From NCBI GenBank assembly GCA_036746235.1, contig DAIOEN010000040.1:1-41593 (forward strand): 41,593 nucleotides of DNA. The letters run 5' to 3'. A program made the translations under genes and the position numbers. Below the pieces are notes generated by a model, which was given only the letters and a program-made list of their open reading frames with translations, was not told where the DNA came from and ran no database searches. The DNA comes from Vulcanimicrobiota bacterium (GTDB lineage Bacteria > Vulcanimicrobiota > SpSt-956 > JAKJGF01). Shown here piece by piece: positions 31,690 to 32,997 of the stretch (position 1 is its first letter; the number at the start of each line of letters is the position of its first letter).

Positions 31690-32829
31690 ATGGAACATAA
31701 AAAACTCTACCTTTATATACATGTACCTTTCTGTAAAAACAAGTGTCCCTACTGCGCCTTTTATTCCATAGAAGATTTTAACCTTGTTGAAGCCTATATT
31801 AAAACTGTGACAGAAGAGATTAATCTCTATTCTTCTTTATTTGATTTCAATCATATAGAATCAATCTATATAGGAGGAGGTACTCCTTCCCTGCTTTCCC
31901 CGAACCATTTGGAGAATATTCTAAAAATCTTTCCTGTAAATAAAAATACTGAAATTACTATTGAAACAAATCCGGAATCCCTTACTCTGGAGAAACTTAA
32001 ATTCTATAAAGAATCAGGCATAAACAGGTTGAGCGTGGGCATACAGTCATGTCTTGACAAAAATCTCTCGGCTCTCGGAAGAAATCACAGAGTCTCTCAG
32101 ATTTATAAAATACTTGATTATATCTACGGACTGGACTTTAAAAATATAAATTTTGATTTTATCTATAATATACCCGGTCAGACTCCGGAAGATCTGAACA
32201 GAGAATTTGACTTTATAAAAACATATAATCCACAACATCTTTCTTTTTACGGTCTTATTCTGGAAGAAGATACGGCTTTTTTCAATAAATATAATAAAAA
32301 AACAGATGAAGATCTTTACAGAGATATGTATCTGAAGATTTCCGAAAAACTTATAGCTCTGGGATATGAACACTATGAGATATCAAATTTCTGCAAACCC
32401 GGCTATCTGTGCCGGCACAACTGGTCTTACTGGGATTTCAGCGAATATCTTGCCTTCGGCCCGTCAGGTTCTTCATATATAGACGGCAAAAGATTTAAAA
32501 ATCCCGATTCTCTGGGAGAATATATAAAAAATATAGAAAACAACAAACTCGCCATAGAAGAACCGGAAAAGAGAAACAGAGAAGACATACTCCTCGAAAA
32601 AATCTTTCTTTCGTTAAGAAAAAATTCCGGCCTCGATTTAAAAAAACTTTCAGAAGAATATAACTTTAACTCTGACAATATAATTGAAAAACTTCATTCC
32701 TTTTTGCCACACGAAATTTATTATATAAAAAACAACATTTTTTTCCTTACGGCAGAAGGTTTTCTTATGTCAAATACCATTATCCTGGACATCTACGAAG
32801 AGATTCTTTTGAATATAAAAAGTGAGTAG
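31690..32829 (+). CDS. hemW: Radical SAM heme chaperone / oxygen-independent coproporphyrinogen-III oxidase-like protein (HemW/HemN family)
   Basis: HVPFCKNKCPYCAF (Cx3Cx2C), GGGTPSLL, HemN C-terminal domain; 379 aa fits HemW better than HemN. Confidence 0.8.
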   Translation: MEHKKLYLYIHVPFCKNKCPYCAFYSIEDFNLVEAYIKTVTEEINLYSSLFDFNHIESIYIGGGTPSLLSPNHLENILKIFPVNKNTEITIETNPESLTLEKLKFYKESGINRLSVGIQSCLDKNLSALGRNHRVSQIYKILDYIYGLDFKNINFDFIYNIPGQTPEDLNREFDFIKTYNPQHLSFYGLILEEDTAFFNKYNKKTDEDLYRDMYLKISEKLIALGYEHYEISNFCKPGYLCRHNWSYWDFSEYLAFGPSGSSYIDGKRFKNPDSLGEYIKNIENNKLAIEEPEKRNREDILLEKIFLSLRKNSGLDLKKLSEEYNFNSDNIIEKLHSFLPHEIYYIKNNIFFLTAEGFLMSNTIILDIYEEILLNIKSE

Positions 32830-32997
32830 TGAGCCATTTATTGTAATCGTGACGGGTAACGCGTAATACGTGACAGGTGGTGCGTGATGCGTATTTCACC
32901 TCCAGAGTGTAATCAAACGCCCCTGCTCACTTTTCACCGGGCGAACACAGTGGTTCGCCACTACACTTCACTTTTCACGACTCACTACTCACTTACC
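32823..32997. mobile_element. MITE-like composite repeat element with 13-bp terminal inverted repeats (AGTGAGTAGTGAG ... CTCACTACTCACT), internal CGTRAYG heptamers and a GC hairpin
   Basis: Left inverted repeat 32823-32835 (supplies the hemW TAG stop codon), right inverted repeat 32981-32993 (3 nt from the glgC stop). Interior: A-type heptamers at 32846-32893, caaacgcccct box, hairpin ggcgaac-acagtg-gttcgcc at 32940-32959, then CACTTYW heptamers. Confidence 0.5.

Follow-up and report, generated by a model that had tools for sequence, protein, structure and literature searches.

The stretch analysed here (the window, 41,593 nucleotides; contig DAIOEN010000040.1 of assembly GCA_036746235.1, from a Vulcanimicrobiota bacterium) contains a 175-bp block of repeated sequence between the convergent genes hemW and glgC, and this block is the subject of the present study. 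The open reading frame (ORF) at 31690-32829 on the plus strand encodes a HemW-like radical-SAM protein with a HemN_C domain, and the ORF at 32998-34278 on the minus strand encodes GlgC. A first-pass annotation of the window, made without database searches, had described the block as a composite resembling a MITE (a transposable element of the miniature inverted-repeat type) bounded by 13-bp inverted repeats. Judged by its sequence, the block rather appears to belong to a lineage-specific family of intergenic mosaics akin to bacterial interspersed mosaic elements (BIMEs) and repetitive extragenic palindromes (REPs), and to sit inside an old hairpin that follows glgC.

The block between hemW and glgC

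The inverted repeat itself is real. The 13-mer AGTGAGTAGTGAG lies at 32821-32833 and its exact reverse complement at 32981-32993; the right arm is located as described earlier, whereas the left arm had been placed 2 nt off (at 32823-32835). Perfect pairing in fact reaches 14 nt (AAGTGAGTAGTGAG at 32820-32833 with CTCACTACTCACTT at 32981-32994) and brackets about 147 bp. The 13-mer has these two sites only in the window (0.02 expected), and perfect inverted repeats of at least 13 nt with arms at most 200 nt apart number five in the window versus 0.17 in Markov resamples. The left arm (32820-32833, plus strand) consists of two GTGAGTA units and codes for the last HemW residues and the TAG codon at 32827-32829, while the glgC stop lies 4 nt past the right arm. 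The block fills the gap between the two genes and supplies the hemW stop codon, just as had been proposed.

The interior also has the content that was ascribed to it. It opens with an array of A-type heptamers at 32845-32893 on the plus strand, in which the conserved terminus AATC is followed by GTGACGG, GTAACGC, GTAATAC, GTGACAG, GTGGTGC and GTGATGC. Then comes a hairpin of REP type, designated H1 (CAGAGTGTAATCAAACGCCCCTGC; 32903-32926, minus strand), which holds the caaacgcccct box (32914-32924, with a second window copy at 17729). Alignment to intact copies shows that this H1 has decayed: the left stem arm reads CAGA-GTGTAATC in place of AAGGGCGTTTAATT, and its tag is CTGC for CTAC. The window copy aligns with other copies of the mosaic throughout 32877-32972. 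The orthologous H1 in the related genome L003 (labels beginning with L denote the assemblies, loci and contigs used for comparison) is intact and reads GGGCGTTTAATAAACGCCCCTAC, so that the box represents the surviving right half of H1. A conserved linker, TCACTTTTCACCG (32927-32939, plus strand), which also occurs in L153 and L196, connects H1 to the GC-rich hairpin GGCGAAC-ACAGTG-GTTCGCC at 32940-32959. This GC hairpin is an intact second REP hairpin, H2; including its tag ACTAC it spans 32940-32964, and on the minus strand it reads GTAG-TGGCGAACCACTGTGTTCGCC. The block closes with a C-type array of TCACnnn units (32965-32994, plus strand), the last 14 nt of which, 32981-32994, form the right arm of the outer stem.

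The heptamers of the block are of a kind that pervades the window. The spacers of the window, which has about 36% GC, abound in tandem repeats whose 7-nt units are built on a GTGA/TCAC core: phased heptamer runs of at least three units number 17, versus 0.09 in shuffled sequences, and Tandem Repeats Finder (TRF) reported arrays of up to seven copies, which lie in the spacers. For comparison, 80 loci from species representatives were fetched via the gene at 26786-29251. Period-7 GTGA/TCAC arrays were confined to a tight clade around the window (L003-L011, 36-38% GC), and none occurred in the 76 loci of other lineages (L012-L087, about 1.26 Mb). The closest metagenome-assembled genomes are labelled inconsistently, as Vulcanimicrobiota/Eremiobacterota, 'Synergistia' or 'Bacillota'.

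The outer stem in related genomes

Five related genomes (L003, L005, L007, L008 and L009) retain the order of lepA, hemW and convergent glgC, with HemW 83-89% identical; L011 has lost synteny and was unusable as an outgroup for the site. In all five, GTGA units stand at the hemW end and TCAC units at the glgC end, so arms orthologous to those of the window are present throughout. What separates them varies strongly, the hemW-glgC spacer measuring 27 bp in L005, 47 bp in L007, about 113 bp in L009, 117 bp in L003, 168 bp in the window and about 190 bp in L008. In L005 and L007 it consists of a bare hairpin of 16-17 bp (z-scores -6.4 and -5.7), followed on the glgC strand by a U-rich tail of the type AUUUUAUA; by their predicted folds these minimal spacers look to be ordinary terminator-like structures. 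The end of HemW varies as well. After the residues ..NIK the protein ends, one tail per genome, in SE, VSSGPLT, GEQQVTQYNRDA, LNSEQ or W. Since these tails differ from genome to genome, the repeat supplies not only the stop codon but also the last residues of the protein.

These observations bear directly on the reading of the block as a MITE, i.e. as a non-autonomous DNA transposon with 13-bp inverted repeat ends that was inserted whole between hemW and glgC. The perfect 14-nt inverted repeat around about 147 bp, the existence of related composites at other sites and an interior that is present or absent among relatives all speak for such an element. However, both arms are found at the orthologous site even where the interior is missing (L005, L007) or different (L003, L008, L009). 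In the comparison of empty and filled sites that had been suggested as a check, the interior does vary among the five relatives, but the arms stay behind at the 'empty' sites, and would predate whatever lies between them. The box recurs in the window at 17729 within an H1 hairpin, whereas the 13-mer, which amounts to two units of an array-forming heptamer, occurs elsewhere in the clade only within one-sided (GTGAGTA)n tandem arrays.

Moreover, the block has no fixed ends. Its flanks, AAAA before AGTGAG on the left and TACC after CTCACT on the right, contain no direct repeat, and no target-site duplication was seen at this block or at its sibling copies. The copies do not have ends in common: other members of the family end in different heptamers, their lengths range from 75 to about 215 bp, and what they share is the internal core together with the inner AATC terminus of the A-array, the only conserved end. 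Pfam searches of 18 window proteins returned no transposase, integrase or HUH protein, the element had no blastn match in plasmid and phage collections, and scans of viral contigs for the clade-specific H1 flank and the start of the A-array gave no matches. With arms in all relatives, a 13-mer that otherwise occurs only in one-sided arrays and no target-site duplication, the supposed terminal inverted repeats (TIRs) are best seen as the base of an ancestral heptamer hairpin and not as transposon termini. The MITE reading is contradicted by the comparison of orthologues, and we consider it highly improbable. The outer hairpin, versions of which exist in every relative compared, would by contrast be ancestral to the site.

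In the predicted fold of the window sequence the outer 20 bp close a structured interior of 147 nt on both strands (plus strand -63.6 kcal/mol, z -4.5; minus strand -65.5 kcal/mol, z -3.3). UUUUUAUAUU follows the stem on the glgC strand. The U-rich tail UUUUUAUAUUCA (32808-32819, minus strand) lies directly 3' of the stem; it is coded by the ..LNIK codons of hemW, and the same tail follows the minimal hairpins of L005 and L007. Given this tail, the most likely role of the outer stem is that of a glgC terminator or of a hairpin that protects the 3' end of its transcript. There is no U-tract on the hemW strand. A consensus terminator scan called no terminator at the element because the loop, at 147 nt, is far too large.

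The mosaic family and its REP hairpins

H1 has the form GGGCGTTT-loop-AAACGCCC, and metagenome contigs were scanned with the pattern GGGCGTTT-N3-4-AAACGCCCCTRC, of which the window holds an intact copy at 17718. The pattern was found in more than 120 contigs with a GC content of 28-70%. Three of these (L153, L166 and L196) belong to the clade, and they add four further composites at unrelated sites. The composite sites thus comprise L153 2085-2300, L166 765-925, L196 2040-2225 and 3675-3800, window 17662-17780 and the L003 orthologue of the hemW-glgC site. The order of the mosaic is AATC-(GTRAYGC)n, GTGACCGTTATAA, H1 (GGGCGTTTAATTAAACGCCC with CTAC), TCAC(nnnTCAC)CG, H2 (GGCGAAC-loop-GTTCGCC(CC)TAC) and (TCACnnn)n; the H2 part is absent from L196 3675-3800, from the window copy at 17662 and from L003. 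Outside the repeats, the L153, L166 and L196 copies have one identical core, GTGACCGTTATAA-GGGCGTTTAATTAAACGCCCCTAC-TCAC..CG-GGCGAAC..GTTCGCC, save for a variable H2 loop and a linker that is 7 nt shorter in L166. Near-identical cores of 45-75 nt occur at six or more unrelated sites in the clade, and the window and L003 copies align as divergent versions of the core. Conservation of the linkers GTGACCGTTATAA and TCAC(nnnTCAC)CG extends to unrelated copies, a trait of BIME-type mosaics.

The recurrence of the modular order within the window, which had been noticed at the outset, is borne out by two siblings. The first, at 17662-17780 on the plus strand, consists of AATC with an A-array, an intact H1 (17718-17737, followed by CTAC) and a C-array that holds the stop codon (17766-17768) of a sigma-54 activator gene. 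The second, at 990-1064 on the plus strand, has no REP and joins an A-array to a C-array via GTAAAATTCA. A third site, 40293-40390 on the plus strand between a PFOR gene and an epimerase gene, carries the REP-less inverted pair (CAGTRAY)5-GTAAAATTCA-(GGTCACT)7. The same junction is thus found in REP-less array pairs at three unrelated sites, namely window 1030-1045, window 40322-40335 and L009 at about 19440. The spacer between lepA and hemW (31594-31680, plus strand) holds arrays, (CAGTGAC)6 followed by ATTACGC/ATCACG units, and relatives have H2 at this site. In L004 (10001-10105) and L009 (about 7200-7304) gene callers read through the arrays of this spacer, which results in false N-terminal extensions of HemW such as MGKHYALRITHHEPPVTRYALRVT and in a called length of 424 aa versus about 380. 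Next to the first sibling, directly downstream of the activator gene (17766-19118), lies an ORF for a Cys-rich protein of 75 aa (17166-17393, minus strand), ahead of which a sigma-54-like motif TGGTAC-N5-TTGC is found at about 17466-17481; the region is conserved in L008 and L009.

The alternative to a copied family is purely local evolution, in which a heptamer terminator hairpin grew in place by slippage and palindrome-templated repair and nothing was copied in. The spacer is indeed hypervariable in length and unit type among relatives, the site can do without REPs, as the minimal hairpins of L005 and L007 demonstrate, and heptamer repeats are known as slippage-prone long simple sequence repeats (LSSRs; PMC4679880). 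Nevertheless, GTGACCGTTATAA, the stems of H1 and H2 and the TCACCG linker are identical at unrelated loci, the 49-nt ordered run of differing A-type heptamers at 32845-32893 has counterparts of 90-92% identity at non-orthologous sites in L008 and L009, and the junction GTAAAATTCA is common to the three unrelated REP-less pairs. Identical non-repetitive cores, such a run and a shared junction cannot arise independently in place, which argues for a copied family and leaves growth in place rather improbable. In addition, two independent short-read assemblies of the strain (L001 and L002) both end at window position 32910, immediately ahead of the H1 remnant, which is what a core present in multiple copies would be expected to cause.

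The suggestion that the block is a mosaic of BIME or REP type is supported by the nature of its hairpins, of which the box marks a decayed one and the GC hairpin an intact one, in a family with a fixed modular order. GTAG REPs are palindromes of 20-40 bp with GTAG at one end that occur as singletons or as head-to-head, tail-to-tail or head-to-tail dimers, mostly between convergent or co-directional ORFs and at most 20 bp from 3' ends, where GTAG often gives a TAG stop (Di Nocera 2013, PMC3733652). On one strand H1 reads GTAG-GGGCGTTT..AAACGCCC and H2 reads GTAG-GGCGAAC..GTTCGCC. A third such palindrome, H3, is perfect (GTAGAGACGCCCC-AAT-GGGGCGTCTCTAC; 3752-3780), lies between convergent genes and is followed by an A-run. 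In all three GTAG precedes a stem-loop that is GC-rich and 20-28 bp long. The tagged end of intact clade copies reads GTAG-GGGCG..., with TTATAA (H1) or CGGTGA (H2) at the opposite flank; in the window the tag is CTGC at the H1 remnant and GTAGT at H2. The roughly 230 kb of clade DNA examined contains six H1 and nine H2 copies at no fewer than six non-orthologous intergenic sites, between convergent or co-directional genes or in leaders, and two further H2 copies occur in unrelated taxa. In the predicted folds the REPs form the apical hairpins, and the H1 and H2 tags lie on the same strand, giving a head-to-tail dimer with the two hairpins 10-17 nt apart. By sequence, H1 and H2 therefore look like GTAG-tagged REPs in each of the listed traits (PMC3733652).

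REPs of this class are acted upon by REP-associated tyrosine transposases (RAYTs), and the first-pass annotation had named these as candidates to look for. Among the non-clade contigs matched by the H1 pattern, L094 carries a complete RAYT (PF01797; NF047646 at 107 bits, the cut-off being 80) at a distance of 208 bp from an H1-like palindrome, L175 has its palindrome within a RAYT gene, as the codons for RGVSRNAPT, and L107 contains RAYT fragments. For the clade itself, tblastn with two RAYTs from other taxa against the roughly 230 kb of clade DNA gave nothing, and a protein search that started from the L094 RAYT yielded Patescibacteria-type RAYTs only, none attributable to the clade.

Some of the contigs from other taxa have features of their own. 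In seven Bacteroidota-like contigs (L088, L095, L121, L154, L168, L171 and L178) an H1-like REP, GGGCGTTTGCAAAACGCCCCTAC, lies within a conserved repeat of greater length, in which TTACGAA/TGACGAG heptamers precede GGGCGTTTGCAAAACGCCCCTAC and a tail of about 60 nt follows; this is a second lineage in which a REP and TNACGNN heptamers occur together. Contig L185 contains five tandem 145-bp repeats at 168-900, each with an H1-like palindrome. The H1-like contigs of other taxa are about 10-fold richer in strict heptamer arrays than control loci, but within 200 nt of the palindromes such arrays showed no enrichment (0.20 versus 0.29 arrays per 10 kb). Because of the latter result, a general coupling of arrays and REPs across taxa was dropped.

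Turnover, origin and relation to known systems

Within the clade the heptamer-bearing spacers change rapidly. From one relative to the next, all of them differ in the family of their units, in the number of copies and in the REPs they hold, with flanking genes that are 85-95% identical. At the 17662 site the window has an H1 and L008 and L009 have none; at the hemW-glgC site the window has an H2 and L003 has none; and in the lepA-hemW spacer L003, L005 and L007 carry an H2, the window, L008 and L009 arrays alone. Contigs of the same strain from eight samples had identical arrays, with no length polymorphism seen at the population level. All composites are predicted to fold as long periodic hairpins with GUGA-UCAC pairing at 7-nt intervals and the REPs at the tip (z -3 to -7.9). 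Other heptamer families, GGGTGTT/AACACCC and AGTTGAG/CTCAACT, are present in L005 (about 7690-7790), L007 (about 9905-9990) and L008 (about 14900-15000), likewise as inverted pairs, the G-rich before the C-rich units.

Several neighbouring features of the window were noted in the same comparison. The gene via which the loci were fetched (26786-29251, minus strand) encodes a protein of 821 aa whose domains are Major Vault Protein shoulder, Vault_3 and Band_7. Its relatives show 44-95% identity, in nearly every case more than 50%, and come from about 80 species representatives of many phyla, including Riflebacteria, Wallbacteria, Myxococcota and Bacteroidota, and also in Leptospiraceae. Two large genes, one for a 716-aa beta-helix/PMP-repeat protein (24251-26401, minus strand) and one for a 700-aa protein with a weak PQQ_2 match (34515-36617, plus strand), are absent from the syntenic loci of relatives and would therefore be strain-specific insertions or have been lost elsewhere. 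The region upstream of lepA (29560-29783) is strongly conserved in relatives; it contains TTGACA-17-TAAATT and the palindrome AGTGTAAT-AATTACACT and could be a promoter plus operator.

The account that we favour, and hold to be probable, is that an ancestral hairpin next to glgC had its loop colonized by a BIME-like mosaic in which two GTAG REPs are combined with heptamer arrays. The older layer would be a GTGA/TCAC heptamer hairpin right after the glgC stop, overlapping the hemW stop. The younger layer, in the loop of that hairpin, would be one copy of the mosaic, with AATC-(GTRAYGC)n, H1, a short TCAC linker, H2 and (TCACnnn)n. As H1 and H2 appear to belong to the class of REPs on which RAYTs act, the REP-containing core may have been copied among intergenic sites through a RAYT that acts in trans or through recombination of one array with another, while the flanking 7-nt arrays would expand, contract and get swapped via replication slippage and gene conversion. 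Since GTGA pairs with TCAC every 7 nt, the whole mosaic can fold as a long periodic hairpin with its REPs at the tip, and a structure of this kind can occupy a terminator loop and leave the outer stem intact. The perfect 14-bp 'terminal' repeat would then be the base of a stem and not a transposon end.

A number of observations weigh against this account. Slippage alone fails to explain how heptamer families are swapped at orthologous sites, the terminator scan is silent at the element, and the U-tract is missing on the hemW side. H1 and H2 are arranged head-to-tail and do not form the alternating or inverted doublet of BIMEs and of REP doublets forming hairpins (REPINs); here it is the flanking heptamer arrays that make the long hairpin. 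No transposase was found in the window or in the clade DNA, although these 230 kb correspond to about 5% of a genome, which makes the result uninformative. Finally, the arrays obey two regularities that the account leaves aside. Where two arrays adjoin, the GTRA-type member invariably lies 5' of the TYAC-type one (24:0 in the clade loci, 5:0 in the window), and the A-arrays follow transcription, reading (GCGUYAC)n-GAUU in the RNA in 19 of 21 unambiguous instances and at about 13 of 14 independent sites. The polarity is explained cheaply by common descent of all copies. The orientation flips with the gene strand inside this single 41-kb window and is therefore not an effect of the replication strand; it hints at selection at the level of RNA or at spread coupled to transcription. 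Taken together, the two regularities hint at selection or at a mechanism outside the colonization account.

Selection at the RNA level is the essence of another explanation, in which strand-specific arrays, with or without REPs, serve the host as binding platforms or switches in untranslated regions (UTRs), for translation, termination or mRNA decay, and the mosaic is kept for this role and not as selfish DNA. Besides the orientation of the A-arrays, it is the leader arrays that argue for such a function. 'A-only' units at 5804-5840, 6460-6495, 8136-8171 and 20928-20960 in the window and at 3535-3570 in L196 read CCTC-GCG(TNACGCG)n-TNAC-GATT on the sense strand and lie just upstream of Shine-Dalgarno sequences or start codons. 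This placement holds for the units at 5804, 6460, 8140 and 20928 and for two L196 copies, and in the RNA many arrays are bounded by CCUC...GAUU. In the minimum-energy fold of two of four leaders CCUC pairs with the Shine-Dalgarno sequence; the z-scores are mostly not significant, and the notion that the 'A-only' leader acts as a length-tunable translational switch is possible but weak. Further points in favour are the likeness to the TAACTGA repeats of Beggiatoaceae, which have been proposed as sites for a translational regulator (PMC4679880), and the presence of hairpins at hemW-glgC in all relatives despite differing sequence. The hemW-glgC block itself is not of the leader type, being a 3'-end composite with a unit sequence that differs from TAACTGA. 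On the other hand, the sequences are not conserved in close relatives, units switch freely in family and number, arrays are gained and lost, most leader folds are not significantly more stable than shuffled sequences, Rfam at gathering thresholds found no family in the whole window, and no candidate binding protein was identified. A host-selected RNA element, although compatible with the colonization of an older hairpin, thus seems doubtful as the explanation of the family.

In a further possibility, which we think unlikely, the array-REP-array module as such is a self-propagating, transcription-oriented unit, with arrays that are made or used by the REP machinery. The units phased by GTGA/GTAG could then offer a RAYT-type HUH enzyme repeated sites at which to cleave or land, or could act in UTRs as an RNA-protein code that is specific to one strand. 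If true, this would account for the GTRA-then-TYAC polarity, for the sense-strand orientation of the arrays and for the wholesale swaps of unit families.

What is new here is the ordered, polar coupling of REPs and heptamer arrays into hairpin-forming mosaics, in an uncultivated, low-GC candidate lineage and with very fast turnover; REPs have been known for decades, as have heptamer repeats, neither with a settled origin or function. As close relatives differ at almost every copy, the clade offers a natural experiment in the birth and spread of REP clusters and short tandem arrays. It also bears on the question whether a transcription-linked orientation reflects function, and on the remodelling of gene ends, given that the repeat supplies HemW with stop codons and C-terminal tails. 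On the practical side, the elements fragment short-read assemblies and lead gene callers to add false N-terminal extensions.

With respect to known structures, the outer stem resembles an intrinsic terminator shared by convergent genes in that it abuts both stops, has a U-rich tail on the glgC strand and has minimal orthologues that look ordinary; it differs in its 147-nt 'loop' of structured repeat, the lack of a U-tract on the hemW strand and the silent terminator scan. Like bacterial MITEs (such as Nezha, ERIC, RUP and NEMIS/Correia) the composites are intergenic, of 100-200 bp, form a stable hairpin, occur in multiple copies and can supply stop codons. Unlike these, the block is without fixed TIRs or target-site duplications, its ends are variable tandem arrays and what look like TIRs were at the site beforehand. 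Elhai et al. (2008, Genome Res 18:1484; cited in PMC3116915) are said to have found in Nostoc small dispersed repeats (SDRs), mobile units 21-27 nt long that form hairpins, in a genome likewise rich in heptamer repeats. By description, the nested or mosaic contexts of those SDRs are similar to what is seen here; lineage and motifs differ.

Heptanucleotide repeats are also reported from cyanobacteria, where Mazel et al. are said to have described the short tandemly repeated repetitive (STRR) sequences in 1990. LSSRs (Mrazek 2007, as summarized in PMC4679880) and the TAACTGA repeats of Beggiatoaceae, Cyanobacteria and Bacteroidetes, with one indirect repeat among 170 sets (MacGregor 2015, PMC4679880), are comparable. 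With all of these the arrays of the clade share that they are short, intergenic, often directly upstream of starts, lineage-restricted and variable in copy number, and some units (TCAGTAA, CAGTGAC) are one or two changes away from TAACTGA or its complement. They differ in that there are many related unit families with a GTGA/TCAC core and not one unit, in that inverted pairs forming long hairpins are the rule and in that arrays are coupled to REP hairpins.

Together with the heptanucleotide repeats, the nearest known structures are the GTAG REPs, the BIMEs and the RAYT (TnpA-REP) systems (Di Nocera 2013, PMC3733652; Nunvar 2010, PMC2817692; Bertels and Rainey 2011, PMC3116915; Messing 2012, PMC3479197). 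H1, H2 and H3 are dispersed, extragenic and situated a few bases from 3' ends, and a GTAG gives a TAG stop; two REP types with conserved linkers are combined in one mosaic, as in BIMEs; and H1-like palindromes of other taxa are linked to RAYT genes. Compared with typical REP systems the density appears modest, at about one per 15-25 kb of the clade DNA seen, and no cognate RAYT was seen in these 230 kb. The head-to-tail arrangement of H1 and H2 sets them apart from REPINs and classical BIMEs with their alternating or inverted order, and in contrast to other GTAG REPs those described here sit between long, opposed heptanucleotide arrays of fixed polarity.

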